From the NCBI GenBank assembly GCA_958009085.1, contig OY253675.1:1-64000 (forward strand): a DNA stretch of 64,000 nucleotides, given 5' to 3'. The notes beneath the pieces were generated by a model. It had not been told where the DNA came from, made no database searches, and saw only the letters and a list, made by a program, of their open reading frames with translations. Of this stretch, positions 2,140 to 59,100 are shown piece by piece. The stretch's first letter is position 1. The number at the start of each line of letters is the position of its first letter. The stretch comes from Protoeuglena noctilucae (lineage: Eukaryota). The position numbers and the translations under genes were made by a program.

Positions 2140-5100
2140 TCACACTCTCATGAGCCTCACCCCCGTGACCCCCGCCTCCTGCGCATCCACCAGCCGCACC
2201 TCCCTCGCCGGCCCCGCCCTCGCCGCCCCCAGCAGCACCTGCGCCACGGTCGCGTCCCCCCGGGCCGACCGCGCCGCTGCCTCTGCGATGGCTGCCTCGG
2301 TGTCTGCCGCCACCAGCAGCTGCTCCAGTGCGGGCAGCACCGCACCCACACGCTCCCCGGACAGCCGCGACAGCAGCGCCTCCACCAGGCGGTGCACGGG
2401 GACACTCCTGGGGGGTGGGGAGGGGGAGGGGGCATGGTGGGTGGGTGGACATGGCAGGGAAAAGGACTGGCAAGCACAACTGCTGCTATGGATATGCTTA
2501 ATCACTCTCTCACCTCACGGCTGCCGCCACCACCAGTTCCAGCAACTCCAGCAGCGACCGCCTCACAGCCTCGCACCGCACACCCTCCCACTTGTCACCG
2601 TCGCTCTTCACCCCCTCCCCCTCTCCCCCCGCTACCCCCCTCCGCCCCTCATCCATCCCCGCCGCCGCCGCTGCCAGGTACGCCCTCAGCTCCCGCGCGC
2701 CCCTCCCCGCCCGGTCCGCCCCCAGCGCGTACGGCTCCATCAGCCGCACCCACAGCGCCGCCTCGCCCTCACTGGCATCCTCACTCGCATCCGCATGCCC
2801 ATTCTCATCCATCTCCTCCTCCCCCAGTCCCTCAGGCACCCCATAGGCGTCCGTCCCCACCGCCCCCGCACCCCACCCGTCCGCCCCCTCCCCCTCCGCC
2901 CCATGCCTCGCCACCCCCTCCGACATCCGCGGTGCTCGCGTGGCCGTGGCGTGCCGCATGCACAGACCCACCGCCGCGTGACACGCCTCCAATGCACGCT
3001 TGGCCGCATCGCACTGGCGCGCCAGCCGGCCGATCGCCAGAGTGTCGGGAACTGGGGAGAGGAGAGGGAAGGGAAGGGTGCAGGGACTGATATGGTAAGA
3101 CGGTGAATGCGGGGGCAGCGACGACGGGCGGAGCATCGCAACAGCTACCCACCCCTCACCCACTCTTCACCACTCCCGATACTCCCACCCTCCTCTCTCA
3201 CCCGCGGATAACAGGTCCCTGTACTCCCACGGCCTAGCCCCCCTCTGCACCACCGCCCCCGCCCCCCCCCTGGGCCCCACCCCCGCCGCCGCCCCCGCCG
3301 CCCTCTCTGCCGCCGCGTCCACCTCCCCCCCCGTCACCGCCTCCGCCAGCGCCGCGATGCTCGCCGCCACGTCCTCCCCCGCGAGCCTCGTGGCCCCCTC
3401 CACGTCGCCCATGCGCTCTAGCAGGTAGGTGACGGCCCCTTTCACGCGGTGGGCGCGGCAGGCGTCGAGGCAGGCGGGGAGGGAGTAGGCGTCGTGGGAG
3501 AGAAGGAAGGGGAGGACGTCGAAGGGGGCGAACCGGCACAGCAGCCTCACGTACTGGTCGCATGTGTCGCGGTCCATGGCGGTGGACTCGGACGCGGTGC
3601 CCCTGTGGAGGGGGGGGGAGGGGGTGAGTGCAGGTGTGGACGTGGCATGCATGTGAGGACATATGGATGGAGAGAGTGGATGTAGAGATGTGACATGGAC
3701 AGTGCTACTGAGGAGAGCAGGTGTAAACATTGCATTGACACAGTACTATGGAAGGGGCGGCATGCGCGGGTGCCGTCATACATAACACGTCGTCTCTCAC
3801 CTGAGGTACTTGTACTGCACTTCTGGGAAAGGGTCAAGGTGCTTGATGAGGGAGCCCTGCATGCCCGGGAACACCGACGCCACCAGGGACGCCGAGGCAG
3901 ACGCGTCCACCTGAGACATGGCAGGGATGGGGGGAGGGTCATGGTGGCAAGGTGAGGGACTGATGGATGAGATGGGGAGTGGATGACAGGAGCGGGGCAG
4001 TGCTGGTTGTGAGCGAGTGCTCTTGCCAACCATGCGCGTGCGTTGTTCCCCCTCATGCGTGCTTGCCTGCGTCATTTGGGATGCGTGCTGCAGGAACGCC
4101 TCGCCCAGCTGGTCCCTTGGGAGTGGGAACTCCCTCGCCAGCTCCACCACGCGGGAGAGGGGGGGAAGCAGAGGGGGGCAGTCGGGGGGAGGGGGGGCGC
4201 CCGCGGCAGCACGCAGGTACCTGGGAAGAAGGGGAGACAGAGCATGGGAGCATGGGATCAGCGACGTACGTATCGAAAGAGAGAAAGGGGAGCGATGCAA
4301 TGCACATGTGGACCTAAAGAGAGATGCGATGCTCGCAGTTGCGCAGTCCGTCGCTCACTGGAAGCACAGCGACGGGCAGGCGTCCGCCCGCAGCCCCGCC
4401 GCCACCGCCCCTGCCGCGTCCCCGGCCAGGTGCCGCGCCGCCGCCTCCACCGCCGTGGATCCCAGCCCCGCGGCGGCGTCGGCGAAGGCGGCCGCCGACT
4501 CCCGCAGCGACCCCGCCGCCTGCCACCCCCGCGCCTGCCGAGCCAGCAGGGACAGGCACCGCGACTCCGCCCACGCCACGGCAGGGCCCGCCTGGCCCCC
4601 CGCCGCCCGGGCCAGCCGCGACACGGCCAGCGCCGCAGCGGAGGGGGGCAGCCAGCACCCGGCGTCGTCCAGCAGCCACCACAGCAGCTGAGCGACAGCG
4701 GACAGCCGGGGGAACAGCAGGGCGCGGGCGGCCGGGTGAGGCACTGCCTCCGCCCCTGCACCCGCCCCTGCGCCCGCTCTCGCAAATGCACCACCCGCCA
4801 GCACCCGCCCCGCCCACGCCCCGTCCACGCCCAGCGCTGCACCTGCGCCCCCCTCGTCACCGCCCTCTCCCTCTCCCTCTCCTGCCACCCACACCGCCGC
4901 CGCGTCCCCCTCCCCCGGCCCCGCCTCCGTCGGCAGCACCCCCGCCTGCACCCATGCCCACACCGCCTCTGCCACTGCCTGTGCCACCGTCTCAGCCGGG
5001 AGGGGGTCCGGGGGGGACGGTGAGGATGGGAAGCGGCTGGCATGCGCTGCATATGGGGGGAAGGGGGTGTGGGTGAGTGAGGGTTGCTGGGACGCAAGTG

Positions 5101-14865: not shown

Positions 14866-15045
14866 CTATTGCTCCCACACGGACGCCAGCAGGTCGAAGG
14901 CCTCCTCCCGTGCCGCCTCTGCATCCCTCTTGCTGGGCGCGTGCGACGCCCGCGCCGCCCAGTCCTTCCCCGTCTGGCCCACGGACTTGCGCAGGTTGTT
15001 CACGTTCTGCACCGCCCGCACGTAGCGCTCCGTGCCGACGCTCAG
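14866..15045 (-). pseudogene. 3' fragment of an unidentified coding sequence truncated by the telomere
   Basis: LSVGTERYVRAVQNVNNLRKSVGQTGKDWAARASHAPSKRDAEAAREEAFDLLASVWEQ* with 55/59 codons ending in G/C. TGTAA lies downstream (14778-14782, minus). No start codon; the frame runs directly into CCCTAA repeats. Confidence 0.6.
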
Positions 15046-15263
15046 GGTTAGGGTTAGGTAGGGTTAGGGTTAGGGTCAGGTTAGGTAGGGTTAGGTTAGG
15101 TTAGGTTTAGGGTTAGGGTTAGGGTTAGGGGTTAGGGTTAGGGTTAGGGTTATGGTTAGGGTAGGGTTAGGGTTAGGGTTAGGGTTAGGGTTAGGGTTAG
15201 GGTTAGGGTTAGGGTTAGGGTTAGGGTTAGGGTTAGGGTTAGGGTTAGGGTTAGGGTTAGGGT
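15044..15263 (+). repeat. Telomeric repeat array (TTAGGG)n with degenerate proximal units
   Basis: Tandem TTAGGG; variants TTAGG, TAGGG, TCAGG, TTTAGGG, TTAGGGG in the proximal ~120 nt; perfect distally. Confidence 0.97.
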
Positions 15264-15463
15264 NNNNNNNNNNNNNNNNNNNNNNNNNNNNNNNNNNNNN
15301 NNNNNNNNNNNNNNNNNNNNNNNNNNNNNNNNNNNNNNNNNNNNNNNNNNNNNNNNNNNNNNNNNNNNNNNNNNNNNNNNNNNNNNNNNNNNNNNNNNNN
15401 NNNNNNNNNNNNNNNNNNNNNNNNNNNNNNNNNNNNNNNNNNNNNNNNNNNNNNNNNNNNNNN
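15264..15463. other. Assembly gap (200 N)
   Basis: Run of exactly 200 N. Confidence 1.
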
Positions 15464-15554
15464 CCTCTCCCCCCTCCCCCTCACCCATGTCGTAGAGTCA
15501 TGCACACAAACACACAACACCCCCACATCTCCCTCTCCCTCTCATCCCCCTCAC

Positions 15555-18500
15555 CGGTGTCGTAGAGTCTCTTGGCCTCGATGGCGATGAGCTCCTGGAA
15601 GAGCCCCACCGTGGCGCGCTCGTGGTCCGCCACGAACGACTCCGCCGCCACGGCCTTGCGCACCCGGTCCCCCTCGGCGTTCTTCGCGTCGCAGGCGTCC
15701 CACAGCTGGTCCCGCAGCCGGTCCACCACCTCCACCGCCTCCGCCCGCACCGACGGCTGCTGGGTGGAGGGGGCGCGCTGCCGCACCTCCGCCAGTGCCC
15801 TGTCCACCATCGCCTGGCGCTCGTCGGGGGCGTGGAGGAACTCTAAGAAGGCAGCGCGCTTCGACACCAGGTACTGGACGTGGTCGGCGCGCTCGCGTCT
15901 CATGCGCGCGAACAGGCCGTCCAGGGAGCGCAGGTACGCCCCCTCGGCCTCCTGCCACGCGGACCATGACGCGCGCGCAGACTCGCGGGGCAGACGCGAC
16001 GCGGAGAGGGAGGGGGCCTCGACGTTGTCGCCCAGAGTGCTGGCGCGGACCGACGGGGCCACGGACGCGGGGCGGCCGCTCCCCACGCGCTCCGGGGTCT
16101 CGGAGCGAGGCACCGCGGATCCCTCCACGCCCTCGCCGCTCCCCGGCGGCTCCGGGCTCTCCGGGGAAAGGTCGTCCGGGCTGCCGGCGTGGGCGGCCGC
16201 GCGCCTGGCCTGCCTTACGGCGCGCTCGGCGGCGGTGCGGGCGTCGGCTGCCTGCTCCGCGGCGTCGTGGGCGCGGGAGAGCAGGTCGCGGACCTGCGGG
16301 AAAGGGTGGGTGGGGGGTGCATTCATGTACAAGACTCGGGACGTGCAGTGCGCGGAGCCGTGCAAGCGGCGTGGGGCAGGGCGGCATGCCATCGCGGCAG
16401 CAAGCGTATGTACGATCATTCCATGTCATCGTCTTCTACCCCACCCACCCCGTCACCCCCTCTCCTCCCCCACCTTGTCCCTGGCAGCCTCGGCCGCCGC
16501 CCGCGCCTGCACCGACGCCTCCAGCCGCGCGTCCGGCCCCTGCCCCGCGGCCGCGTCCATCGCCGCACGCGCCGACTCCTCCGCGGCCCGCGCCTCCTCC
16601 GCCGCCTTCGCAGCGCGCATGGCCGCCTCCTCCGCCCTCCGCAGCGCCTCGGCACACGCCGCGCTGGCGTTGAGCCTCAGCAGCTCCTGCGCCGCGGCTT
16701 CCGGGGACTCCGCGGGGGGCTCCTTGTCTTTGTCCTTGTCCCCCTTGCCACCCTTCCCCTTGGTCGGCTTGGCCGCGTCCCCCGACAGCAACGCGAGCGC
16801 CTCCACCTCGGCACGCTTAGCGGCGAAGAGCTCCTGTGCCGCCGCCTGCGCCGCCGCCTGCGCCTCCTCGGCCCTCTGCGCCGCCGCGCGGACGTCCTCG
16901 AGGGTGCGGGACAGGTCTGGGGGGAGAGAAGGGGTGGGGGTGGTTGGGGTGGGTGAGGGTGCGACTAAGTTGAGCAGAGGAGCCAAGAGCGGCAGCTGAC
17001 CGGGCACAGATGGGGCGAACATTTGATTATTAACAAGAAGGACAACAAGGGTCAACAGCAAAGCGGTCAGACCCCGCATGGCGTGTCATGCGACTTGCAC
17101 CGCACCCCCCCACCGCCCTCACCCCGCGCGGCCGCCTTGACCTCCCCCGCGGCCTCCCTGGCCTCCTTGAGTCTCTCCACACAGCCACGACCTCTCTCTA
17201 ACGCCTCCTCGAGCGCACAGTCCCCGTCCACCTCGGCCAGCAGCCCCGGGAAGCGCGCTGCCCACTCCCGCACCGCGTTTGCATTTGCACGGAAGGACGC
17301 CACCCTCGCCGCGACGGCAGCGGCGTCGTTGCTGGGCCCCGGCACCCCCTCGAGCCTCGCGAGCAGCCCCGGCTCGGTGGTGGGGGGCGGGCATGTCTCT
17401 GCGTGGAACACGCGCCCCGTCTCTGGGTCCACGCGCCTGCCTGCCGCCCGGTGCACTGCCTCGGACTCAGAGGCGAGGGATAGGAAGAAGAGGCCGTCGA
17501 GACCGGAGACGTAGGCGGAGGGGTCCAAGGAGAGCTCCGACTCGGAGGGGGGGGCCAGGAACGACGCCGACTGCGCCAACTCTGCGGTGGGTGGGGGAGG
17601 GGGGTGTACAGGTGATGTATATGGGGGGAGTGAGTGGTAAAGAGTCACAGGTATCACAAAGTGTTGTTTGAGTGCTACAGTGTTGACATGTCTAACCCTA
17701 CCCGCATGGTGGGTGCGGGCAGGATTGTGTCAAGATGGTGTGTATCCCCGTCAGTGCAGGCATCTGCAATAGCACCCCTCCCCCGCCTTCATCCGCTCTC
17801 ACCCCTGAGCCTGTCCGCGTCGAGTCCCGTGAGCCCCTTCTCCAGCAGCTTGGCCTGCTTCAGCGTGCGAGGGAACCCATCCAGCACGAACCCGCTCGTC
17901 ACCACGGGCGGCGACCACGCGGCGTCCTTCCCCTTCTTGGGCTTGGCGTCTTTCTTGGCTGCCTTGGCTTTGTCCTCCTTCTCCTTCCCCTTCTTCCCCT
18001 TGTCGTCCTTCTTGCCCTTATCATCCTTCACCGTCTCCAACGTGGCAGCAGACGCCTCCTGGGGAGGAGAGGGGGTGGGTGAGGGGGTGGGTGTGGGTGT
18101 GGGTGTGGGTGAGAAGCAGTGCATGTGTATGGTAAGAGGTGAGTGGGGGGCGGGTGAGGAGTGGTGCACATGTGCATGGATGAGGCGAAGTGGGGCACGC
18201 GGCGACGCCATGCCAAGCGACGCATTGACAGCGACTCCTCTTTCGCTCACACTGTGCTTGTCCGCCTTCAACCTGTGATATGACCGCATCCCCAGCGCGT
18301 GCCTCACCCGTGCCAGCTTGGTCCCCAGCGCCGCGACCTCCATCACCACCAGCCGCACCGTCACGTCGTCCGGCACCTCCTCCCCCTCCGCCAGCAGGTC
18401 CAGGCACTTCTGCCCCAGGCGCACCTCCTCCGATGAGGGGTCCACGGATGCGGAGTCGTCGGACGCGGGCTCGGGGGGGGGCTGAGGGAGATATGGGAAC

Positions 18501-41200: not shown

Positions 41201-44200
41201 GGGGGGAGAGAGAGAGTGGGCGTGGGAGTGAGTGAGGGAGTGAGTGAGGGAGTGAGTGAGTGAGTGACAAGAGAGAGAGAGAGAGAGTGAGTGAGTGTGG
41301 GAGGGAGTGAGTGAGTGAGTGAGTGAGGGAGTGAGGGAGGGAGAGGGAGTGAGTGAGTGAGGGAGAAAGTGAGGGAGGGAGAGGGGAAGGGGGGGTACAG
41401 CGTGAGGTTGGCAAAGGCAGCCACGCCGTCCCTCAGTGCCCAATGATAGTCAACTAGACAATGCAATTATCAACTATCCGCCCATCTATCGCCCCATCAC
41501 CATCTCACCCGACCCGTCATCCCTCAGCGCCCTGAACACCACCTCTTCTCTACTGTCATCACCTCTATCAATCACATTCCCATGTAACATACCCATGTAA
41601 CCCATGTCTCACCCGACACGTCGTCCTTGAGCGCCTTGAACACCAGCGCCAGGAACGCCGCCACCTTCTGCGACCCCGCGAGCCCCGGGGCCAAAAGGGT
41701 GCCGTACGCCGCTCGGAAGAATCGATCGTCGACCGCCGCCCTCGCAGCCGTAACGTGGTACAGCAGCGCCAGAGCCTGCACCGCCACCCCCAGCGATGGG
41801 GCGTGCGCCATGCGGTAGAGCGCGGGGGCGTGCGTTTCGATGAGCGGCTCGATGTCGGTGGGTGGGACGAAGGGGAACGCCCGGTTGACGCCCGTGAGTA
41901 GGGCCGAGAGGAGGCGGGCGTCCAGCTCACTCGAGGACTGGGGGAAGAGGGGTGGGAGGTGGTTGTTGATAGGAGAAGTGGTGTTAATATAGGGAGTGGT
42001 GTCCAGCTCTCTCGAGGACTGGGAGGGGTGGTTGGTTGTTTGATAGGGGGAGTGGTGTCGAGCTGACGTGGTGGCGCGGGGGTGAAGTTGGAGGTGGGGG
42101 CATTGTTGCAAAGCATTTCAGCATTATAGCCATGCATTCTTTGTGCTATCGCCACCAACACTCCCACCATCACCCCCACTCACCGCCGCTGCGTCCCTCC
42201 CCTCTTCTTCCTTCAACGCTCTCTTCGCCTCTGCCCCCTTCCTCCCCTTCTTCAACGCCGCCTCCTCCTTTTGTTTTTTCCTGTCTGCCGCGTGGCCCAC
42301 CGTGCCCTCGACAAGCATCTTGAACAACGCAAAGTAACAGTCGATCAACCGGTGGGCCAGCGAGGGGCCCTGGGGGGGGGGGAGAGTGGGTGGAGTGGAG
42401 GGGTGGGAAGGTGATGGAATGGGAGGGAGTGAGGGAGGGCTGACTATCTCGATCAGACCAGTCATGTTCACATACAGAATGACAAGCACGTTGTACCACC
42501 CCCTCTCACCTCCCCCTCCTTCTCCTTCTCCCTCTCCAGCACCATCTGGCTGAGGAACACGACCGCGTAGTACCTGGCGCGGTCCTGCAGGTTGCGCCTA
42601 AACAAGAAGCGCTCCACCTCCCGCACCACGACCGCCTTCATGCGTGGGTGCTCGGTCAGCAGGCATTGCAGGAAGTAAGCAGCACGGGAAGCAACCTTGC
42701 GCACTGGGGGGTGGGAGGGGTGGGGTGGGGGGATTGGGGGTGAGCAGGGCACGGGATGATGCGGCATTGCGCTCACCGATCAGTCACTACCAATCACACA
42801 CATTACTCTCACATACATCCACAACCCCATCTCCCCTCACCCGGATCTCCCAGCTTGTTGACCACCATGGCCAGCACCCTGGCCTCCCCCTCCGGTTTGG
42901 TCGACAGCAGCTCGTATGCCGCACGCAGCGCCCTCTCCCTCACATACTCCAGGTTGTCCATCAAACAAGCATCCAGTGCGGACAGGAAGGCGTAGAAGCG
43001 GGAGCGGAGGGAGTCCTCGAATGCCCAGTAGAGACACAGGCGGTCGCCGTCCTTGCCGGGAGGGAGAAGGGCTGGGGGGGGTGGGGGTGGGGGTAGCGGT
43101 GAGGGTGGCAGTGGGGGTGGCAGTGAAGGTGGCAGTGAAGGTGGCAGTTACGGTACATGCTCAGGTGCAAGGCACAACCATCATCCCACCCAAAAGAGAG
43201 CACTGCACACGACACCCATACTACCCAGCCGTCCCCCTCAGCTCCTCAGCGCCATGACCACAGTAGTAACATTACCATACTAACATACCCATAGCACATC
43301 TCTCACATAGGTCTCTCTGCTCCAGCGTCGTCAGCCTCCGGTCCGGCAGAAGCACGGACTTGAAGAGCTCCCGCAGCGCATCAATCGACTGGCCGACCAC
43401 CGCGCGGCCGCCCTTGGACTTGGCTACCCACGAAATCAGCTCGTCCAACGCGCGAAGATTCGCGATCGCGCGCTCCTGGACCACAAGGGCCGACGCCGCG
43501 AGGCGGTCGCGGGTTGTCCCTGCCTTGCGCACCGCCACCAGCCACCGCGCGTCGGACGGGTTCGTGCGCCACATGGAACGCTCGAACGCGCGCGCCTCGT
43601 TCGTAAGCAAACGCTCGCCGCGCTCCCGCGCAGCAGCGACCGCCTCCGCGGGCGCGGGGGACCCCGGAGACGTGGACGCGGCGACGCCCGCCGCGGACTC
43701 CGCCGCGCGCGCCGCCTCGAACCAGCTCGCCGGCTCGTCGCGGGGGAGGATTGATTTCGCCTTCGGGAGGTCCGCGGGAGGCCCGGAGGTGCCTCCCTCG
43801 GCGTCCCCAGCACCGCCCGCCAGCAGGGAGCCCCCCTGCGCGCCGGGGCGCTGGCCCACGGACTCTCTCCAGCCCCGGGACCGTATGGGATCCAGAGACT
43901 TGCGATCAGACCCGTTGCCGGCGTCCTGCGGGCGCGAGAACGCGCGGGGCGGAAGGCCGTGAACAAGGGCGGCTTTAAAGAGCTCCTCTAGAGCGTCGCC
44001 GCGGTATGAAAGCGAAATGCACGTACCAAGACGAGCGCATACAGTAATAGAATCTGCGCAAGCAAGAACCGCGCGCGTCCGCGCAGTTCGCGGGTCGCAA
44101 GGCCGCCGACTGCGCCGACGCGTGATGCGGGCCCCGGCGCGGCGGTCGCCTCGCGCAGAGCGCCGCCATCGCTTCCACCGCACCTTACTCCATCTCCCGC

Positions 44201-44492: not shown

Positions 44493-44796
44493 GTTTACGC
44501 AATACTACCTACGAACGCCGGGACGCGGCAACGGTGGTTTGGGGGCTTCACGCCTGCCCCCTTCTCTTTGCGACGCGTCACCAGTCGCGCGCCGCCCTTT
44601 CCGCGGCCGGGTTGCGCGCGCGGCCGCAGCTTTTCTGCACGCCCATCGTTGGCGCTTGCCGCACAGCGTTCTCGTCGCTGTGAGTGCCAGTCTCAGTCGT
44701 TTCACTTCAACGCCGGCCGGCCTCCCCAACCCTCCAACACAATCCCGCATCCCTCCCCATCTACAAGATGCGATCTGCGATCTTTTCCAGTATTCC

Positions 44797-47700
44797 TCAC
44801 GCGCCGTGCACAATCAGGTCAAGACCGGTGGCCTCAGCCCCGATCCGCGCCACCCCCCCCACGGGCGACGGCTGCCCCTTGCATGAGGGCTGGAACTTGG
44901 CCCCCGACAGCGGGCACTGCACGAAAGGCGCTCCCCGGTAGATGGGCGTGTAGGTGAGGCAGCACACGTCAAAGGGCGTGCGTGGGTCGTAGTCCAGCTC
45001 GATGTCGTCCTTGAGGCCCGCCTTGTCGCACGCCAGGAGCACCTGCTTGGCCTGGGGGGGGGATGGGGAGGGGTGGGGTGAGGGGGAGGAGAGGTGGGTT
45101 GGGATGGAGAGGGACCTACCTTCACATCACCACCACACATGCACCCCACCCCACTACACATACCCACACCCCCCATCTCCCTCACCTGCACCGCAAACTT
45201 GTCCCCCGGCCCCAAGTCGACCAGCCTCCTGGCCATGTGCGAGGCCGTGCCGTAGCACTTCATCTTGAAGAGCACCGTCATGGCCGCGCGCAGGGAGAGG
45301 GCCTCGTGCACGGGCGCCATGCCGCAGTGGGTGAAGTAGCACGACAGCTCAGCCGAGCGCTTGGGGTCCTTGTCAGAGACCTCCTTGCGCTTCAGCTCCA
45401 CTCTGGATAAAATGGGGAGAGGGTGTGTGAGTGTGCGTTACCACCACTCCACTCTAAACCCACACACCCCCCCACACATACACCCACCCACACACACATC
45501 TCTCACCTCATGGCCACCACGTAGTCCCTGCACGTCCTCATCGCGTCGTGGATCTCCGCCATCTCCCCCGCATCCTTGGCCGCCAGCATCGTGCACGCGA
45601 GCAGACACCCGTTGAACGCGCGGAGAGCATCCGTGAACCGACCGGCCGTCACCATGCCCTGCGCCTCGGCGATGCGCGCCACGATTGCCGTGAGGGAGTA
45701 GGCGGGGCGGGGGCCGGCGGGCGGCTGCGTCTCGGCTGCGTCGGACCAGTCCCGGTCGATAGCCAAAGCGAAGGGCGGCAGGCCGGGGAGCGTGGCGGCC
45801 ACCGCGTGCGACGCAGCAACAACGTCCAGGAACAGCTGCTTGTAGGGAGCGAAGTGGGATACCCCACATTGCCGGTGCAGCACGCGCATGGCCGAGGCGG
45901 GGTCGTTAGCAGCCACGTGCTCGCAGGGGGTGCGGGCGGTCTGCCCCCAGCGCCGGGAGTGGGGCACGCCGGGTGCGGGGGGGATGAAGGCCTGTGCGGC
46001 CATGGCGGCGGTGGGGAGGGCCTGCGTGTCGTCTGCCTCGTGGCCGCCCAGGTCCAAAGCGCCCAGGTCCAGGTCGTCATCGCCCCAGGCGCCTGGGGGG
46101 GATGGGGTTGGGGGGCTGAGTGCTGGGGTGTAGGTGGGGGTGGCAGTGGGGGTGGCAGTGAGGGTGGCGGTGGGGGCAGCAGTGGGGGTAGCAGTGCGGG
46201 TGATAGTAACAATAATAAGGCGAGAGGGGTGGTGCTCACAATAGGCAGTCGCAACCCCATCACAGGCAGTCCTGCTACCAACCACCGCATCCCCCCCTCC
46301 CTCACCTCCCTCCAGCGCCCTCTCCACCTCCCCCATCCCCGCCCCCGCATCCCCGCCCCTCGACGCCGTGGTGTCTGACGCCGCAACGCCAGTGCCGGTG
46401 CCAGTGCCGGTGCCAGTGTCGAGGTCCTCCTCCCCGCCCCACGCGTCCGCCCCCTCCCCCGGCCCCTCCATCACCACCCCCGCATTCACGGGACGGGAGC
46501 CGGGGACCTGGTCGAACATGCCGCGCTGTGGGGAGGGAGAAGGCGTGACTGGTGAGTGGAGATGTGTGTGTGTTTATGACAGACCTGGTTGAGCGCGCCA
46601 CGCTGCATTGAGGAAAGTCATGAATGAGGGAGAGTGAGCCATCGCATCCCACCCACCCCACCCCATGCCACACCCCCATCCCTCCCCTCCGCACACCCTC
46701 ACACCCACCACCGCATCCCCACCCCATCACCCCGCATCCCCCAACCCCACACCCCCCCCTTATCCGCCAATCACCTTCGCCGCCGCGGACGGCCACGGCG
46801 CCCCGTCCGCTTTGACCGGGGCGGGCGGCCACAGCAGCGCCGCCCCTTCCACACCCCTGGGCAGTCGCACGTCGCCCCCCGCCCCCTCCCCCCCGTCCAC
46901 CCCCTTGCCGCCCTCCGCCCGCAGCTCCTGCGCCAGCACTGCCTCCTCGTCCCCCATGCCGTGCGTGTGGGCGGTGAGGTACGCCAGCTGCAGCTGCCCC
47001 GCCTCCCGCAGGACGCGCACGCGGTCCATGGCGTCGCCCAGGTAACAGGCGCAGTGGAAGCGGGAGAGGGGGTCGTTCCTGGGAATGGGAGGTGGAGTGG
47101 GGTGAGGTGAGAGGGTGTGTATGGTGGCATGGTTAGTGGGTGTTGTTTGTTGTTATGAGGTCTCATGTGACGGGCGCGGTGGAAGCGGGAGTGGGCGTTG
47201 CCTTTGCCTTTGCCTGCATCCATCCACACCCCCCATCTCCCTCACCTCCTCCACAGCTCTTTCACCATCCCTATCACCATCACCATCGCCACTGACCTCA
47301 CTCATCATATGTAATATTATCCACCACTCACCTCAGCTCCGCCATCTTCCGCATCTCCCCCACACCACCATCACCAACACTATCACTACCCCACTCAACA
47401 TCACTACCCCAAGCACTATCACCATCACCATCCCCCACTCGCCTCAGCTCCGCCATCTTCCTCATCTTCTCCAGCTTCCCCCTCTCCCCCGTCAGCACAT
47501 ACAGGAACGCCAGCCGGTCGTAGTCCTTGGTCTTCTGGCACGCGTACTCCACCACCTGGGAGATGGGGGGAAAGATGTTGTTATAGAGAGATAGTGAGAG
47601 TTTTTGGTCTTCTGGCACGCGTACTCCACCACCTGGATGAGAGATGAGGGGAGGGGAGGGGCACTGAAGGAGAGATGAAAGTTGTTGAGAAGGGTCGGCG

Positions 47701-50700
47701 GAGCACGTTTGGATAGATACTCAACACACTTGCAATCCACGGCATCACCACCACCGCAGACCACCACCACTACCCCTCCATCACTCCACCACCCCTCACC
47801 TGCAAGTGCCCCAGCCGCAGCGCTTGTTGTCCCACTCTCACTACCGCTCTCACCACCACCACCACCACCACCCCTCTCTCTATAAATCAAATCCATCGAT
47901 CTCCCCTCACCTGCAAGTGCCCCAGCCTCAGCGCTTGTTGTCCCAGCTCCCTCCACGTCGCCGCGTCGTCCATCTCCTGCGCCGCCTCCAGCGCCGCCTC
48001 GACGTTGCCAGAACCCAGCGCCAGGGTGAAGCGGCGCCTGGGATGGGATAAAGGGGGTGGTGGTGGTGGTTGGGGGTGTGGTGGGGTCGAGCAGTGGCTG
48101 GGGTGAAGTCATACCAACAATGACGAATACAAATACTGTTTCCTAATTAGCACATTGCTTCTCCTTCACCTGGGGTCCTTGACCATGTGCATGGCCACTT
48201 CCGGGAACCCCTTCGCCTGCAGGTACGCCACCATGGCATCCCCCACCAATGCCCCCGACTGGATCATCGCCAGCACCTGGGGATACTCTTTTCGCATCAA
48301 ATGCAGCTTGAAGGCGAACTCGGAGGCGTTGACGGTCAGGTGCAGCACGCGGCCCTCGCGGTCCAGGGCCGTGACCTAAAGGGGGTGAGGGGTGCGGTGA
48401 GGGTGAGGGGTGCGGTGAGGTGAGGGGTGGGAAAGGGAGGTGATGGTGTGTGCGTGACGGAGATCACTATCGCAGCAACCTGCAACACCACACTCACATC
48501 CCCAACCACACCACGCTCACTCTAACCACTCCCACTCCACCCCTCACCTGCCCCCCCTGCACCGACACCAGGTAGAGCGGCAATCTACCACTCCCACTAC
48601 CCACCCCTCACCTGCCCCCCCTGCACCGACACCAGGTAGAGCGGCGCGTCGAGCGTGCGCACGATGCCGCTGTCGCCATTGGGCAGGCAGTACTTCATGT
48701 GGTTGAGCGTGGTGTACAGCAGAGCACCGGACGCGTCGAATGCGGCCGACTTGACGCGGATGGTTTCGTGGACGGTGACGGACGACTTGAGCTTGCGGTC
48801 GGCGATCACCACCGCGTGCTTGGACAGCAGCGCCACCAGCGACATGTCGGGGGACCAGACCACGTACTTGACCTGAGAAGGGGAGGTGGGGAGATGGGGA
48901 GAGGTGAGTAACTGTGTATGTGTTTGTGTTTCGTCACTCCCTCTCAACCATCTCACCTGCGCCGCCGCCACCTCCCCCACCACCGCCCGCGTCTGCAGGT
49001 CGAGCATCGCCACCCGGTCCTCGCCCCTCAGCAGCACCGCCCCCGTCCCCGCGTAAAAGATCGAATCGGGCGCCAACCCCGCCGGCACCGCCACCTTCTT
49101 CGTAACCTCGTTCAGCAGGTTCTTGATCAGCAGCGCGTTCTGGGTTCGATCCAGCACGGCAAAGCGGTTGCGCGCCACGAAGGCCGCCCCGCTGCCCGTG
49201 CCCCGCCGGGCCTCCACCGACGCCTCACCCTTGGTCCCGGCGTCGCGGGGGATCACTGGGGGGAGTGGCAGGGGGAGTGGGGGGGTAGTGAGGGTAGCAG
49301 TGAGGGTGGCAGTCGAGGTGGCAACAGTGGGGTTGGTAGTAGGGGTGCTAGTCGGCTTGACAGTAAGGGCGGCACTTCTTGTGCAGTTCGTACAACCCCA
49401 TCGCTACACCCCACCCCTCCTTCCCCCTCCTCTCCCCCCCTCACTGTACAGCTCGTACGACCCCCTATTACTGCTTCCCATCTCATCACCACCCTTCCCC
49501 CCCCCCCCCCTCACCGTACAGCTCGTACGACCCCCCCTCGGCGGTGCTGGTGAGCAGGACGGCGTTCTCGGCTGGGTTATACCCCAAATGCCGGGGTGCC
49601 GCGTTGAGCGTCGACCCCGAGGGCCGCTTGAGGGCCAGCAAGGGAGTGGACCTCCTTGAAGCCAGGTCGTACAGCCGCAGGTATCGATCCTTTACGTAGA
49701 AGAGCTTCGATCCGTGCAGGGAGTGCGCGGGCCTCTCCCGTTCGAGTTTGAACACGATGATGCCGCTGTCGTGGCCGGCGGCCAGCAGGTTGATCTCCGG
49801 GTGGGCGGCGAGGATCCAGAAGCGGTCATGCTCGCGGCTGCGATGGGGGGGAGGGTGTGTGTGTGTGAGTGAGTGAGTGTGTGTGTGTGAGTGGGGTGGT
49901 GGTGAGTGAGATGCAGAAGCGGTCGTGCTTGCGGCTGCGATAGGTGGGGGGTGGGGTGTGTGCGTGAGTGGCAGTGGGGGTGGTGAAGGTAGTGTTGAGT
50001 GGGTACGGGTAGAAGAGCTCATCACCCGACCCCCCCCCCCCTTCGTCACTCTCACCGCTAACCCACACACAGTCACCCCCACTCTCTCCCTCACCGGAAC
50101 GTCTGCACCCCCGTGCGCTTGGACATGTCCCAGACGCGCACGGTGCGGTCCTCCGAGTTGGACACGATCAAATCCTGCTTGGCGTGGAACATGACGCAGG
50201 AGACGTTGTTGGTGTGGCCGCGCAGCGTGTCCACCTCCCAGGCCTTGCTCTCGTTCATGCGCCACAGCTTGACCTGGGGGGGGGATGGGGGATGGGTGTA
50301 TGGGACCCGGGCAGGGTTGGATGAACGGGGATGGCGGCTGTGCACATGCTAAACAGTGATCATGTTTGTCACATCATCATTGCTGCCGATACCTTCTCAT
50401 TGCACGCCCCCTCACCAGCAGTCAACACCCCTTCTCTCCCATCATCCCTCACCTGCCTGTCGTCCGCCCCCGACACCAGCAGCGGCAGCGAGGGGTGGAA
50501 GTGCACCCAGTTGACCCCCCTCTCGTGTCCTTCAAGCACGTACTTGACCATCGCCTCGGAGCTGCCAAAGAGGTCCGCGCCCATCGAGGGCAGGCCGGGG
50601 AAGGGGCGGTCCTCGCTGTGAAGGGGGGAGGGGATGAAGGGGGGTGAACAGATCGGGAGTGGGGGGCGGGGTCAGGGTATCATCCACATCGACACCCACA

Positions 50701-52445
50701 CTCAGACTTACCCCCGTTACACCCATTCGCACACCCACGCCCTCACCGCACACCTCCAAAGCACACCCAAACCCCCGCCGCACCCACACCATATACCCAT
50801 CCACTGCACACCCACCGCTCACGCGCACCCCCCACCCCCTCCGCACACCCCCCATCTCACCTGGCGTGCCCCCCCGGCGTGGGCGACTTGCGCCTGAGCG
50901 CCGACACATCCCACACGCGGATGGTCTGGTCGAGGGAGGCGCTGGCCACGATGTCTTCCTTGGGGTGGAATCGGGCGCACATGACGTAGTGGTTGTGGCC
51001 GGTCAGGACGGCGATGCAGGCGCGGGACTGCCAGTTCCATATGCGAATGGTCTGGGGGGGAGGGAGGGTGAGGGTGGGGTGTTAATAACCAATGCGGATG
51101 GTCTGGGGGTGGGGTGGGTGAGGTGAGAGGGGTGAGTAAGATATGTGAGTGAGGGACTGCCAGTTCCAGATGCAGATGGTCTGAGAATGGGGTGGGTGGG
51201 GTGTGACGTGAGAGGGACTGCCAGTTCCAAATGCGGAGTGGGGATGGGGTACGGTGGGACATGTGAATGATGGACTGCTAGTAACAAATGCGGGTACCAC
51301 CATCCCCAGTTGTCAGTACCAACACCTCGTCTCCCTCATCTCATCTCACCTGGTCGTCCGAGCACGATAGCACCCAGGGGCTCTCGTGGTGGAACTGCAC
51401 GGTGCGGATGTAGTCGAGGTGACCCACCAGCGTGAAGATGCACCGGCGCTGCTGGTAGTTCCAGACCTTGACCTGAGGGGGAGAGATGGAGGCGTGGGGT
51501 GTGGGTGTCAGGTGTGAGCAGTTCGGATGATGCCATGGGGAGCTGAGGGGCGGGAGGTGAGGGCAGGGTCAAGCATCGGCATCGTCCATGCGCTTCTGCT
51601 ATCCATCGACGCTCTGACGCTGATCCTCAGCCCCTGGGTCCCCCACCTTGTAGTCATCCCCGCCAGACACAAACAGCGGCTGCGTGCCGTGGAAGTCCAC
51701 GCTCCGGACGGGGCCCTCGTGCTGCGGGCGGGAAAACAAAGGGCCGCGGGTCGGTGTATTCACAAGCACTGAACCACAACCGACCATGTCGACTCGTGTC
51801 GCTCACAAAGCCCCTCATCGACCCTGCATCTCGCGCGAACCCCGTCCGACCATCGCCCGTCCATTGCACTTAACGCACCTCGTCGAAGCGATCGATCAGC
51901 GTCCCCATGCGGTAGTCCCAGAGCTGTATCATGCCCGTGTGAAGGGACGCAAGGATCCACGGCCTGCGGGCACCGCGCGGCGATACATCGCTCCGGAAGC
52001 TGAGCTTTGACATAACTAACATCAGCTGCGACGGAAGCGGGGTCGCGCGAAACGCAGCGCGCGCGATGGGGCCAGAGGGACGCTCGGACACCCGATGCAG
52101 CGGCCTGGGGCGCCGGGACGGCCACTTGGGGGACCAGACCGCAGCTGAGCGGAGCTTCACGAGCATCTACGTCCGATGGGAGCAAGCATCGGGCGCTTCG
52201 TCCCCCACGCCGGCCAGGGTGCGTCCCCGGGCAACGCATGCGCGTGGGACCCATGCCGGGCCCCTGGGGCCGCGCCCGGGGCCCTCTCGCTGGCCAGCGC
52301 GCGAGATGCGAGTCACGAGCGAGATCGGATGGCGGATGCCGACCATCGCGGCTCCCCACAGCGGCGTGGGGGCCCGGCCTCACCGTTTGGGGTGGAACGC
52401 GCATCCCTTGACGCGGTTGCTCTTCGTCTCGAACTTTGTCAGCAT
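44797..52445 (-). CDS. COPA: Coatomer subunit alpha, multi-exon
   Basis: [112 protein letters not shown]. Confidence 0.97.
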
Positions 52446-52902
52446 CTTGACCCGTTAGCTCCGAGGACGCGCCCGGGCGGGCCAGGGAAGTCGGCTCTCG
52501 GCCAAGCGGGGCCGAGGACGGAGGCTCCAGAGGCCGCGGGCCCAGTCACCGGCGCCCGCGCGCAAAATCTGCCCCGAACTGACGTGCGGGAGGGGTCGGA
52601 TCGGTCCCTCAATGCGGTTCTGGCGGTGTCAGAAGCGGGTTTTGCGTGCCTCCCGAGATCCCCCGCGTCGCCCGCACTGCGGCGCTCTCGCGGTCCATTT
52701 CGCGTTCCTAGCACCGGGCGAACTCTTCCGCGGACAATCTGCGGCTGCGACGTCGGCTGGCTGAGCCTTCGGCGCGTGGCTTCTGCGTGCGCTCCCGGCC
52801 GCGCGTCGGGCAACTTAGGCGCCCGCCACCCGCCGCCGCTGAGTCTCTGAACTTGGCAGGAACCTCGCGGGCGCGGTCCGGGGCCCCGACCCGCGGGCGA
52901 CC

Positions 52903-55843
<2,941 letters not shown>

Positions 55844-56169
55844 GATAGAGACATTCCCGTCCCAAAGCGAGGCGCTGTGTCGGGGGCAGACTCGTTTGCC
55901 TGCAGCGCACACGCCAGTTGAAGCTGCTTCCTGGGAATGAAACACCCATCGCTACTCCCTCATGCACCAGATCCCACATGCGCCTGAACTCGCTCGCCGC
56001 ACTGGCCAGACATCGTTATTGCGATCGGAAGAGCAGGGCCGTCACTGCCCAGCTGTACTCAGCGCACCGGTGGCATCTGCGCGCCCGATTTCATCTGCAC
56101 CTGAATCCTGGGCGTTTGTTATTGTTCCGCACTGCCTGACAGGGGCGCGGCGGGGCCCACGGACTCGCG

Positions 56170-59100
56170 ATGACTGGGGAAGAGTGAGTGCCCCGCCAAG
56201 CGATGGATCCCGCGCGCTGGGCCACCTGCGTTCCCCGCGGGGGCATGTGGCGCGAGATGCTTAGATGATACGTCCCTGGTCGCTGCAGGAACGCCGGGGA
56301 GGCTGGCACCCGGAAGCGGAGGACGCGGTTCGCGGACCCCACGCCGGCGCCCACCGAGCCCCCGGAGGCGGCGACGCCCAGCGGCACGGCCCTGGTCACG
56401 GGTGGCCAGAGTGCAGGAGCAACGGAGGCGCCGACTCCGGCGACGGCGGAGCGTCCCTCCGGGACGGAGGGCGCGGCGACCCCGGCGTCGGGCAACGGGG
56501 CGCCGTCTGCCGAGGGGCAGAAGAAGCGGAAGCGGAGGAAGGGCTGGGGAGAGCCTACCAACAATCCAATCAACATGCCCACGATCCTCGGCACGGGCGC
56601 GCTGCCGAACCTCCCGCACGTGAGTCGGGGTCACAGACGCGCCCTTCCCAGCCGCGGAGTGCCCCGCGAGGCTCCGATTTTGTTTGCGATGTATTCTCAA
56701 CTCCATTTTCTTTATCATCTGTGCTTCCCTCGCCTCCGGGCGTGCGCCGATCGCTTGGCGCTCGCCCCGCAGTCGTTCCCGTGCTTCACGTCCGTTCCCT
56801 CCCGCTTTCCCCTCAGATCCCCGGCGCCTTCATGGCGCACGTGGGTCCTTCCTCTTCCGGCAACGACTTGGTGGCCGCGATGCTGGGCGCGGGCAGCTCT
56901 GCCGCTGTGGTCCCGGATTTCACGGGCGAGACGCACGCCATGAAGCAGAGCCGCAAGGTGTACGTGGGCAACGTGCCCATGCACTGGTGACTGACGCGCG
57001 ATGTGTAGAAGCAGAGCCGCAAGGTGTACGTGCGCGACGCAGCCTTGGTTGTTGGTTGCTGAGAAGCAGCGGACCTGCAACGAGCGTCGCTGTGTCCGTC
57101 TCCCCACCATACATCGACCCTTGCTTACCCTTCCTCCCTTTAAAAGTAGCACCTATCGTTTGAATAAACGATGCCTTGACTCCCCACCATCCATCCACCT
57201 TCCCCCCCCCCCCCCCCCCCCCGCAGCACGGTGAACGAGCTGATGAACTGGTCGTCGGAGCAGGTGCTCAAGGCATGTCCCACCATCATGGAGGTGACCA
57301 AGGGGGCCATCCCCGTCATCAATGGCATGGTGGCGGGGGACAAGGGGTACGCCTTCATTGAGTGTGCGTGTGCCGAGGTCGCCACCATCGCCGTCAACTT
57401 GCTGGACGGCAAGACCTTCCGGTGAGGAGCAGGGACGCGATTCGCTGATTCCAATTCTCTTTCTCACACTCTTTCCTTTCCATCGCAACCTCTCACGTGC
57501 ACCACCCCACCCCCACCCCACCTCTCTACCCCTCACTGCTGTCGCTACCAGCCCCTCACATGACCCACCCCACCTCCCTCTCTCCCCCCAGTGGCAGCAT
57601 CCTGCGCATGCGTCGCCCCAAGGACTACATCCCAGGGTGGGAGCCCGACCACGTCATCCTCACGCGCCTCATCCCGGGGTACCGCATCCCCATCTCCAGG
57701 GAGGTGAGAGGAAGGGGCACGGCTTTGACTGTGTGCGTGCTGGGTTACTGAGTGATAAGCAGCATCCCCATCTCCAGGGAGGTGAGGGAGAGGGAGAGGG
57801 AGACAGTGCAGGGATGGGTGCAAAGCGAGAGGTCGCATCCTGACGCTACCACCCCTCCGCAGCCACTCTCCTTGCCTCTACTGACCCACTCCAATCCCCT
57901 CACCCACTCCATCCCTCCACCCTACTCCCCGTCACCCACTCCACCCCCCCACTCCCCCAAACCCCCCCCCAGGTCCAATGCGACAGCGAGGTCCCCCCCT
58001 CCCCCACGCGCCTGTATGTGGGCAACCTGCACCCGGTCGTATCCGAGGCAGAACTGAAGGACTTCTTCCACAAATACGCCGAGCTGCGCGCGTTCAAGCT
58101 TATCAAGAAGCACCCGGACGACGAGCTGTCCATGGGCTACGCCTTCGCGCAATTCGAATTCCCCAGCGACTTTCCGGCCGGGGTGCTGGGGCTGCGTGGG
58201 GTGCAGTTCATGGGCAAGCCCATCGCGGTGTTCCCCGCGGACCTTGACCCGGAGATTCTCCCAAAGATCACCGACGAGGTGGCGCAGGGGCGGTCCGGGC
58301 TGGACGTGCTGCCAGAGTCGGTGCCAGAGAGGCCCCGGGAGGAGTGGTACCGGCCGCTCGAGTGGGTCAAGCCCCTCAGCGAGGCGCCGACGAGGATACT
58401 CGAGATATCCGGGTGCATATCGGGTGAGTGGGAGTTGGGTGGCTGGTGGCATGGGTGGTAGTATGGGTATGAGTGGGCTGGTTGGTGTTGTCTGGGTGCG
58501 TCGCAGAGTCGATGGAGGAGCTGCATGTCACATATCACACATCGCAACCCATCTCACTTCTTGTGCTTTGTCGCAGAGTCGATGGAGGAGCTGAACGACG
58601 AGGATGCGTGCGCGCGCATTGAAGAGGACGTGCGTGCCGAGTGCGAAAGGTTTGGGCTCACGTGGTCATCGCACCTGACGCGCTTGCCGGGGGCGGCGGC
58701 GGGGGCTGCGGGGGAGGCGGCAAAGGCGGAGGGCGGGGCGGAGGGGGCGGCAAAGACGGAGGGTGATGCGGCGGGGGCGGGGACGGAGGTGAAGGTGGAG
58801 GGGGAGTTGAAAGCGGAGGGCGCGGGGGGTGCGGGGGAGGGGGAGAATGGGATGGGAGCGGCGGGGGAGGCGGGGGCGGGTGTGGTGAAAGACGAGGGTG
58901 GGAATTTGGGAACGGAGCCTAAGGGGGAATCGAAGGGTGTACCTGCGGACGAGGGCCACATTGAGGAAGTGCGGGAGGAGGAGGGTGCACAGGGGGCGGC
59001 TGTGAAGGAAGAGGGGAATGGCGATGCGGGTCGCGAGGGTGGGGATGGCGATGGGGACGAGGATGAGGATGGGGATGGGGAGGGGGGGCCTAAGAAGCTG

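Follow-up and report, generated by a model that had tools for sequence, protein, structure and literature searches.

Why would introns repeatedly contain copies of the ends of their own flanking exons, splice sites included? The question is raised by a 64-kb window (contig OY253675.1, positions 1-64,000) of the marine green alga Protoeuglena noctilucae, in which a sequence-only reading had listed 20 pairs of a real stretch and an intronic copy, here called an echo. All 20 pairs are present where that reading placed them, and the echo observation is thus confirmed in the window (Table 1). The genes concerned include those for kinesin (recognized by its motor domain), Hsp70, CBF/Mak21 and an RRM protein, identified by Pfam, and COPA, identified by homologues; VPS8 and MYST are putative names taken from the sequence-only reading. 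Further echoes lie outside the original list, namely 47430/47319, 51024-51300, 54936-55068, 15545/15475 and third copies at 41407-41426 and about 49367.

Two of the listed pairs need a different description. The 'VPS8' pair (3216/3174) is not above chance: it does not reach the threshold of the repeat scan and lacks gene-model support, both of its copies lie within one open frame, and a Pfam search there gave zero matches. The 56942 pair had been taken for a junction copy with its donor at 56957. The real RRM donor is at 56986|56987, and the source is exon-internal, at -45 to -21 from this donor, with its copy at +22 to +46 of the intron.

Table 1. Exon and junction copies in the window (matches are identical/compared nucleotides; RNA joint, intron joined in an RNA contig)
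Span	Strand	Feature	Real / echo	Matches	Further details
3174..3230	-	doubtful 'VPS8' pair	3216-3230 / 3174-3188	13/15	G-rich; sub-threshold
15475..15569	-	donor echo	15545-15569 / 15475-15499	23/25	adjoins N gap; real copy assigned from ORF context only
24122..24219	+	kinesin exon end (LVDLAGSE)	24122-24136 / 24205-24219	15/15	donor 4 nt beyond copy; similarity runs on with indel; score 15, just below scan threshold
24897..25017	+	donor echo, head-to-tail array	24901-24941 / 24954-24994	40/41	period 53
31303..31427	+	Hsp70-family exon end and GTGAGT	31303-31326 / 31404-31426	20/23-24	Hsp70 by Pfam
32291..32414	+	acceptor echo (Hsp70 in the sequence-only reading)	32396-32414 / 32291-32309	19/19	spacer contains 43-nt tandem repeat; spacer similarity rank first of 7
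40267..40392	-	GC-type donor echo, CBF/Mak21 (NOC1-like)	40371-40392 / 40267-40288	21/22	echo retains GCGAG
41058..41426	-	acceptor echoes, exon starting 41082	41058-41097 / 41161-41200	39/40	originally listed core 41058-41087/41161-41190, 30/30; third partial copy 41407-41426, 19/19
41503..41645	-	donor echo, NOC1-like	41607-41645 / 41503-41541	34/39	RNA piece starts 41613
41920..42023	-	acceptor echo, NOC1-like	41920-41942 / 42001-42023	22/23	RNA piece ends 41937
47048..47205	-	acceptor echo, COPA intron 47079-47442	47048-47080 / 47173-47203	24/31-33	RNA joint; gapped score 17 vs null maximum 15
47319..47467	-	donor echo, COPA intron 47079-47442	47430-47467 / 47319-47356	35/38	real donor GCGAGT, echo GTGAGT
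47527..47636	-	acceptor echo, COPA intron 47556-47910	47527-47559 / 47604-47636	33/33	RNA joint
47792..47945	-	donor echo, COPA intron 47556-47910	47903-47945 / 47792-47834	42/43	both copies in one X5 contig
48525..48645	-	donor echo, COPA intron 48376-48611	48601-48645 / 48537-48581	45/45	RNA joint; near-complete 64-nt tandem duplication
49367..49535	-	donor echo, COPA intron 49256-49514	 / 49434-49465	31/32	originally listed span 49511-49535/49441-49465, 24/25; third, more diverged copy deeper inside, about 49367
49817..49941	-	acceptor echo, COPA intron 49838-50094	49817-49844 / 49914-49941	26/28	border from homology-based spliced alignment and RNA piece ending 49837
51024..51300	-	array of exon start and acceptor, COPA intron 51052-51349			4-5 copies, 51-78 nt apart, occupying most of intron
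53526..53609	+	donor echo, intron 53539-53686	53526-53546 / 53589-53609	21/21	unrelated spacers; RNA joint
53802..53926	+	GC-type donor echo, intron 53833-54107	53802-53838 / 53890-53926	36/37	RNA joint; echo retains GCGAGT
54936..55068	+	three-unit array of exon end and donor, intron 54956-55194			period 54-55; RNA joint
56942..57032	+	exon-internal copy, RRM (U2AF65-like) gene	56942-56966 / 57008-57032	25/25	
57684..57786	+	donor echo, RRM gene intron 57704-57972	57684-57708 / 57762-57786	25/25	
58500..58593	+	acceptor echo, RRM gene intron 58424-58576	58570-58593 / 58500-58523	24/24	RNA piece ends 58423

Since the window is part of a scaffold with a 200-N gap, the echoes could in principle have been produced by assembly or polishing. 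The probability of this is practically negligible, as independent contigs from X5, a marine metagenome run of a different study, carry both copies of many pairs. Six X5 spans (40000-41179, 41396-42381, 47607-48566, 50032-54684, 54779-57115 and 57957-58774) show 0 differences from the window, and each of them contains both copies of at least one pair. The X5 contigs break only within long exact repeats, as expected of de Bruijn assembly.

The echoes are also in clear excess over controls. In an ungapped scan at offsets of 25-400 (score of at least 16), 116 segments were found, 31 of them non-periodic and direct, while four equally wide bands at distant offsets (1000, 2000, 3000 and 5000) yielded 0, 1, 1 and 1. 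At the same local offsets there was a single inverted repeat, and none remained after the non-periodicity filter. Thus, echoes are local DNA copies in the same orientation, as had been claimed. Their link with junctions was assessed in 28 introns with independently evidenced borders, by aligning the exon ends at 56 junctions with their own introns and with non-adjacent ones. At 16 of these junctions, in 13 of the 28 introns, none of the 1,512 non-adjacent comparisons scored as high as the echo. Exon segments located 50-100 nt away from the junction yielded 0/44 echoes in the first 22 introns, and reverse-complement queries there yielded 1/44, which was marginal. Donor echoes lie on the donor side of the intron and acceptor echoes on the acceptor side, in agreement with the earlier description.

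The 16 junctions that exceed the null link echoes with splice junctions, but part of the proposed focus may be a detection effect. The ends of the introns are low-complexity arrays resembling splice sites, so that copies primed there are invisible unless they reach the exon. For instance, the motif G[TC]GAG has a density of 8.5 per kb in the 5′ halves of introns vs 1.3 per kb in exons, and the 5′ halves are 44% G and the 3′ halves 41% C.

Which of the two copies is used can be seen in metatranscriptome contigs from three samples. All 16 of the RNA-contig joints among those listed use the outer, real sites, in contigs whose assembly drops rare variants, and the 16 joined introns are canonical (GT/GC..AG) only at the sites that the sequence-only reading had designated as real. 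In addition, pieces of RNA contigs end at 41613 and 41937, which are two of the NOC1-like real sites. The assignment of real and echo copies is therefore upheld, and the echoes, foreseen as decoys, are near-perfect splice sites that are unused in the assembled transcripts. The donor consensus is intact in 9 of the 10 donor echoes of supported introns, and many of them are 100% identical to the real site; among three GC-type donors, the GC is kept in two echoes and the third is one transition away. Such conservation might suggest that echoes are selected as functional decoy or alternative splice sites, e.g., for regulated unproductive splicing or U1 recruitment. This is very unlikely given the exclusive use of the outer sites at the listed joints. 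Moreover, periods divisible by 3 occur in 7 of 21 pairs, which is no frame preference and hence does not point to selection for alternative products in frame. No role is evident for the copied exon stretch, and none of the three COPA introns of the closest relative has an echo. The youth of the copies is a simpler account of their identity.

How, then, were the copies made? Across 21 pairs, the copied stretch covers 19-45 nt across the splice junction, with a median of 21 nt of exon (range 13-35 nt) and 6 nt of intron (0-15 nt), and its distance from the original, the period, has a median of 88 nt and a range of 53-129 nt. Copy starts are unevenly distributed over the period (mean 0.16 vs 0.5, t = -12.3, p = 8e-11). 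The copies are asymmetric, the junction being close to their edge on the intron side (mean i/R 0.23, p = 2e-10). Identity within copies is 90-100%, while the spacers of 12-98 nt are far less alike, with spacer-to-spacer local scores of just 4-28. In 9/13 donor pairs and 1/7 acceptor pairs, spacers are no more similar than unrelated introns are (rank 3 or lower); in the other 10 of 20 pairs (6/7 acceptor and 4/13 donor), spacer similarity ranks first or second.

These latter ranks would be expected if plain tandem duplications of 50-130 nt occurred anywhere, with exonic ones purged, junction-spanning ones surviving and the low-complexity intron part decaying by slippage, that is, in the absence of any targeting or patch. 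Head-to-tail arrays at junctions are consistent with this, at 48525-48645 (1.9 copies, 96% matches), 24897-25017 (2.3 copies), 54936 (three copies) and 51024 (4-5 copies), and so are tandem repeats devoid of exon sequence at 28099, 32009 and 32306; two junction arrays are true tandem repeats according to TRF. Introns with echoes are indeed longer, as had been proposed (median 259 nt vs 166 nt without echoes, Mann-Whitney p = 0.0012), and the excess is about one period. The spacer ranks and the TRF arrays thus indicate that part of the set is ordinary tandem duplication. Nevertheless, with periods as long as 129 nt, the exon part stays within 35 nt (45 nt once), and the copy starts depart from uniformity (KS p = 5e-9). 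The exact copies at 53526, 57684 and 58500 stand beside complex, non-repetitive and wholly dissimilar spacers, and their flanks are unrelated; with zero substitutions in the core, decay cannot explain such spacers. Furthermore, the annotated genes (COPA and those at 53-56 kb) have 12 non-periodic local repeats, all involving exon sequence and none purely intronic. Overall, plain duplication is a rather unlikely explanation, though one of some weight, and a templated patch appears to suit the young, sharp-edged pairs with unrelated spacers better.

It is also conceivable that old junction-spanning duplications were kept identical in part by short-tract gene conversion from the constrained exon end. 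The 56942 echo is exact over its core, beyond which an in-register similarity of about 60% extends to the old donor, and in the 51024 and 54936 arrays the echo copies have changes in common that are absent from the real exon. However, conversion should homogenise spacers too, no remaining similarity in register is seen in most donor pairs, and recombination needs homology far longer than cores of 15-45 nt. Gene conversion is consequently improbable as the general mechanism. The 56942 pair itself looks like either an old duplication that later received a patch or a case of gene conversion.

Known routes of intron gain have been considered as well. In the birth of introns by tandem duplication of an AG|GT site, one copy lies at each end of the new intron, whose length is that of the duplication (PMC3265369, PMC4974935, PMC2891723). 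In the alga, too, an identical second splice site arises by local duplication, but here the intron is longer and already existed, and the two copies are found together on one of its sides. The similarity between the two ends that this route predicts is missing: exon ends and intron ends share 0-7 of 15 positions in 22 introns, the chance level. This route was therefore rejected, in line with the sequence-only reading, which had noted the opposite geometry.

Introners are introns of transposon origin found in protists, with marine algae as their main known hosts; they form sequence families and have target-site duplications of 3-9 bp at the two intron ends (PMC9860276). By analogy, the echoes might have arisen as target-site duplications when a mobile element (an introner or retroelement fragment) inserted beside junctions, the spacer being the element. 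Like introner hosts, this is a marine alga with short direct repeats involving splice sites, and its lineage looks rich in new introns, with 16 of 18 COPA intron positions absent from all 69-80 other COPA loci. However, no further copies of the spacers are present in the window, and all-against-all BLAST of the 28 introns, with low-complexity masking, gave just 6 matches of 22-33 nt; no sequence family was therefore seen in these introns. The duplications are variable and of 19-45 nt, instead of the 3-9 bp of introners, and the two copies share one side of the intron and do not flank it, the test for flanking duplications being negative. A mobile element is accordingly very improbable.

The nearest known case is a single human minisatellite. 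Intron 7 of the human F7 gene is described as containing a VNTR of 37-bp units, the first of which straddles the exon 7/intron 7 border (PMC1557585). Identical pseudo-donors, which remain silent, thus come after the true donor, and splicing takes place at the most upstream site. The arrays at 48525-48645, 24897-25017 and 54936 are similar, with head-to-tail units starting in the exon, and the RNA contigs of the alga likewise use the outermost site. Unlike F7, which is one locus in one gene, echoes in the alga occur at 16 of the 56 junctions examined, at both acceptors and donors, and mostly the junction stretch alone is repeated, with an unrelated spacer, instead of whole units.

Our tentative preference, with just short of an even chance of being right, is that echoes are DNA-level scars of repeated local copying, in one orientation, within single introns. 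They would comprise templated patches and short tandem duplications, and would probably derive from microhomology-primed break repair. A junction stretch would be rewritten 53-129 nt deeper in the same intron, sometimes in several rounds, when an intron break is repaired by end joining with abortive templated synthesis of the kind described for polymerase theta. The 3′ end at the break would carry a motif resembling a splice site (G[TC]GAG and G-runs in the 5′ half, a pyrimidine-rich ...CAG in the 3′ half) and might anneal, in a shifted register, to the motif of the true splice site on the opposite resected end. Extension by about 13-35 nt into unique exon sequence would be followed by release and rejoining. 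Priming at other low-complexity motifs would merely reshuffle the array unseen, so that visible copies would be located at junctions. A minority of echoes would be plain head-to-tail duplications with units of 53-64 nt. The recurrent process of templated insertion first proposed thus fits several sharp-edged patches but not the four arrays named above, which are ordinary head-to-tail duplications. That first interpretation is accordingly supported in part, the R-loops at junctions being a hypothetical element of it.

Polymerase theta repair produces short templated insertions copied from nearby flanks as well as small tandem duplications, and the sharp-edged copies from within about 100 nt, sometimes in several rounds, resemble these, although we know of no link between such insertions and splice junctions. 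Some observations fit less well. Inverted (snap-back) copies are also expected from this repair, and the alga has none after filtering. Periods as long as 129 nt and copies as long as 45 nt lie towards the upper limit for such insertions, and the 56942 copy lacks a junction. By hand arithmetic, introns with echoes minus whole periods measure about 129 nt vs 166 nt for echo-free introns, which fits whole-unit duplication at least equally.

In either case, the outermost donor and acceptor are still joined, so that the mRNA is unchanged and the copies would be tolerated. The pattern, seen so far in this one 64-kb window, would leave the affected introns longer and provided with decoy splice sites that are unused in assembled transcripts.

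The window is approximately 66% G+C and carries intron-rich eukaryotic genes. Its COPA protein has its best named relatives among chlorophyte green algae (Tetrabaena, Volvox, Chlamydomonas and others; 73–76% identity over an 87-residue exon). Near-identical DNA is found in marine metagenomes and in sequencing runs that carry the label of a single organism, and spliced copies occur in marine metatranscriptomes. Among the joints listed, 16 introns at 45–59.4 kb (11 of the GT..AG and 5 of the GC..AG type) are missing from metatranscriptome contigs of three runs. These joints are canonical only at the outer sites, as the sequence-only reading had it when it called those sites real. In 16/16 listed joints the outer sites are used and the identical pseudo-sites are silent, with the proviso that contigs may miss rare use of an echo, that is, of a same-orientation copy of an exon end and its splice site inside the adjoining intron. 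Further RNA pieces end at 41613, 41937, 49837 and 58423. GC-AG introns are frequent, with 5/28 checked donors starting in GCGAG (introns between 41083 and 59382).

COPA borders were also placed with our own protein-to-genome spliced aligner, which reproduced 8 COPA RNA joints exactly and added six more COPA introns. For the RRM (U2AF65-like) gene, a homologue search at E <= 1e-8 gave no match, and the model was built instead from RNA-piece lengths, open frames and the RRM motif. The sole model that fits the piece lengths, an open frame and a complete RRM has exons at 56817–56986, 57227–57421 and 57592–57703, and the exon that follows has an RRM_1 match. This model shifts the real donor to 56986/56987; consequently, the stretch at 56942–56966, which had been read as a junction, is exon-internal. 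Elsewhere in the window, a long open frame rich in ankyrin repeats (34014–35147) closely follows the Hsp70-family exons, in the same orientation.

All 20 real/echo pairs that had been listed are present where they were placed, with identities as claimed or nearly so. The set holds except for one doubtful pair (3216, in the putative VPS8 gene) and the misplaced junction at 56942. The pairs are not assembly artefacts, since marine metagenome DNA contigs from another study hold both copies of many of them with 0 differences (for instance, 47607–48566, 50032–54684, 54779–57115, 57957–58774, 40000–41179 and 41396–42381). In addition, these contigs break within the longest exact repeats, as would be expected of real repeats.

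How common echoes are at junctions was tallied over 28 introns with independent borders, supported by RNA joints (16), by homology (6) or by RNA pieces together with frame and domain (6). Four COPA introns (48873–48956 and three between 46022 and 46939) were left out as uncertain, because their homology-only borders conflicted between query proteins or with RNA pieces. All kinesin, Hsp70 and 'VPS8' introns, and the remaining introns of the CBF/Mak21 (NOC1-like) gene, have borders without independent evidence and were also left out. Each query, 60 nt of exon plus 12 nt of intron, was aligned to the intron interior. Among the 56 junctions, 10 donors and 6 acceptors have an echo, with scores of 17–45, and at least one echo is present in 13/28 introns. 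Against non-adjacent introns, the best of 1,512 alignments scored 15, so that the proposed comparison of exon ends with their own and with non-adjacent introns sets 16/56 junctions above every non-adjacent score. In the first 22 introns, exon segments 50–100 nt from the border gave 0/44 echoes, and reverse-complement queries gave 1/44, with a score of 12. Echo-bearing introns are longer than echo-free ones (median 259 vs 166 nt, p = 0.0012).

An ungapped direct-repeat scan of the window (offsets 25–400, score >=16) returned 116 segments, 31 of them non-periodic. Control scans in four distant-offset bands gave 0, 1, 1 and 1 non-periodic segments, and the equivalent search for inverted repeats left 0 segments after filtering, from 1 raw. 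Thus, the excess is local and strictly same-strand. An exon end is involved in approximately 24/31 of the non-periodic segments; the remainder comprises a 13-nt repeat, a telomere-like array, an in-frame 48-nt repeat in an acidic exon, a G-rich match and three tandem or periodic segments (at 28144, 32571 and 38287). The in-frame 48-nt tandem repeat, with a 30/15-nt substructure, occupies 40819–40916 in the acidic part of a CBF/Mak21 exon. At 15044–15463, the + strand carries some 38 units of a (TTAGGG)n array, which abuts a 200-N gap; this is either a telomere-ended contig scaffolded onto another contig or an interstitial telomere repeat.

The anatomy of the copies was measured in 21 pairs, leaving aside 56942 as exon-internal, 3216 as doubtful, 24122 as gapped, and any additional array copies. 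The copies are 90–100% identical. Their starts are far from uniform along the period (p = 8e-11), and the junction sits close to the copy's intron-side edge (p = 2e-10). The specific splice site is copied too: GC-type donors stay GC in two echoes, and a third differs by one transition. Donor echoes begin 21–86 nt into the intron and acceptor echoes stop 48–101 nt before its end, in introns of 148–530 nt. The period is divisible by three in 7/21 pairs. An acceptor-like AG precedes the donor echo in 6–7/15 pairs, which was judged not significant.

Dimensions of echo copies (21 pairs) and locations of multi-copy arrays in the window
Feature	Range or coordinates	Median or copies
Exon part of copy	13–35 nt	21 nt
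Intron part of copy	0–15 nt	6 nt
Whole copy	19–45 nt	31 nt
Distance between copies	53–129 nt	88 nt
Array	51024–51300	4–5 copies
Array	54936–55068	three copies
Array	41058–41426	three copies
Array	49367–49535 (near)	three copies

Echoes could in principle be the remains of tandem duplications that have since decayed. In some cases the duplication is evident: Tandem Repeats Finder (TRF) detects repeats at 48525–48645 (64 nt, 1.9 copies, 96%) and 24897–25017 (53 nt, 2.3 copies). The sequence between the copies (the spacer) was also compared with that past the echo and ranked against other introns; its similarity ranked first or second in 6/7 acceptor pairs and 4/13 donor pairs. Nevertheless, even top-ranked spacers reach only about 30–70% of the possible score, against 90–100% identity in the copies. 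In the exact-copy pairs 53526, 57684 and 58500, the flanks are complex and unrelated on both sides. Uniform decay of a tandem duplication cannot explain these pairs, as it would have to leave 21–25 nt with zero changes while the adjoining sequence lost all resemblance. The set is accordingly of two kinds, one made up of head-to-tail duplications and the other of brief stretches of junction sequence patched into the intron. The earlier proposal, in which local copying from a template recurs, makes introns longer and sows decoy sites, is partly supported; R-loops and a true targeting of junctions are a conjectural part of it. Tandem repeats without exon sequence also occur, at 28099–28238 (71 nt), 32009–32089 (42 nt) and 32306–32394 (43 nt); the last lies within the spacer of the 32291/32396 acceptor echo, and its first 4 nt are the closing 4 nt of the stretch of exon that is echoed.

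The nearest described case found is a minisatellite in human F7 intron 7. There, a 37-bp unit is repeated, the first unit spans the exon border, and identical silent pseudo-donors follow the true donor, the most upstream site being chosen (PMC1557585). The repeats at 48525–48645 and 24897–25017 and the 54936 and 51024 arrays are of this type, with border-spanning head-to-tail units, whereas pairs with unrelated spacers, such as 53526, 57684 and 58500, are not. As in F7, the outermost site is used here and the pseudo-sites are silent in the 16 listed RNA joints. A systematic echo pattern at both kinds of junction was not found reported in open-access full text.

Two known routes of intron birth were also considered. 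Under the AG/GT duplication model, intron length equals the duplicated unit and the intron ends repeat the opposite exon flanks. The sequence-only reading had judged the echoes contrary to this model, and the flanks agree with that judgment: exon-1 end against intron end, and exon-2 start against intron start, match at 0–7/15 in 22 introns, and the echoes lie well inside the introns. Introners are sequence families with 3–9 bp duplications flanking the intron (PMC9860276). Here, by contrast, the repeats are of 19–45 nt and both lie on one side of the intron. An all-against-all BLAST of 28 introns, with masking on, gave 6 matches of 22–33 nt, and was not taken to indicate an introner family; no spacer has a copy elsewhere in the 64-kb window. 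Introner target-site duplication was likewise rejected on the 0–7/15 matches, in a 15-nt in-register test that is coarse for a 3–4 bp duplication.

To compare intron positions, one COPA protein was aligned to the window (44700–52450, minus strand) and to 80 metagenome loci, 14 of them intronless. Of 18 window positions, four of which have uncertain borders, 16 occur in none of the 69–80 loci that cover them. Conversely, widely shared positions are missing from the window (residue 70 phase 1, in 49 loci; 236 phase 1, in 32; 646 phase 0, in 25). This suggests lineage-specific intron turnover or gain. That the window introns are ancient ones that have slid was not retained as an explanation; five lie within 3–8 residues of widely shared positions, with about 2 expected by chance in a hand estimate. 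The metagenome scan for same-species DNA with empty alleles yielded these 80 COPA loci, none from the same species. The closest locus, L001 (1–5975; 76% G+C), has 85% protein identity in one exon and only three COPA introns, all near the 5′ end. Two of them share positions with the first two window introns, and none of the three carries an echo (best scores 7–9). Within the window gene, an exact 22-nt same-strand match joins 45164–45185 and 47224–47245, 2 kb apart; it pairs the first 22 nt of intron 45052–45185 with an internal site of intron 47079–47442. No such match is expected (100 shuffles), and it is in effect a non-adjacent "echo".

The composition of the introns may bear on how echoes arise. 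In 22 introns of COPA and the 53–59 kb genes, the halves are mirror-skewed (5′ halves G 44% and C 16%; 3′ halves C 41% and G 20%). The donor-like motif G[TC]GAG occurs 8.5 times per kb in 5′ halves vs 1.3 per kb in exons, and its reverse complement 12.7 times per kb in 3′ halves. Judging from these mirrored motifs, the two halves could pair with each other; the window scan found no long exact inverted repeats. At a break within the motif array, the exposed 3′ end might anneal in a shifted register to the true splice-site motif of the opposite, resected end, be extended a few tens of nt into the exon and then be rejoined. The product would be the real junction, a spacer, the exon end with its splice motif, and the rest of the intron, in direct orientation. 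The short intron-side edge would represent the priming homology, and the exon tract would be limited in length. Priming at other motifs of the array would only reshuffle low-complexity sequence, and junction copies alone would be visible. Breaking, priming, extending and rejoining in this manner are the known steps of polymerase-theta end joining, from which we infer that echoes may arise. The copies agree with its signature of copying sequence within about 100 nt of the insertion, being 90–100% identical at 53–129 nt. On the other hand, the absence of inverted copies from the window scan speaks against it, as does the fact that the metagenome loci supplied no empty allele.

A broader reading, which we regard as tentative and rather unlikely, is that echoes mark a lineage-specific process by which introns grow, and perhaps turn over, through break repair primed on splice-site-like repeats. 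Junction copying would then build the mirror-skewed, motif-rich intron ends, and each event would add roughly one unit to an intron. Perfect decoys, of donors and of acceptors, would arise continually, and the spliceosome would have to ignore them by an outermost-site rule. The setting for this reading is a lineage in which most COPA intron positions are unshared and one junction-like stretch has been copied to an intron 2 kb away.

All of the evidence on echoes comes from one 64-kb window. If the pattern is genome-wide, gene finders would need a warning, as echo sites score the same as real ones; the misplaced donor of the sequence-only reading is an instance. There would also be hundreds of naturally occurring, perfect decoys of splice sites, each with its exonic context and 50–130 nt from the real site. 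Such a collection would be a ready-made experiment on how a short-intron spliceosome chooses between identical sites, and in the 16 joints listed the outermost is preferred for donors and acceptors alike. Finally, with many copies at 100% identity, the process is expected to be recent or still active and to be polymorphic, and it would provide a concrete, datable mutational route to longer introns.
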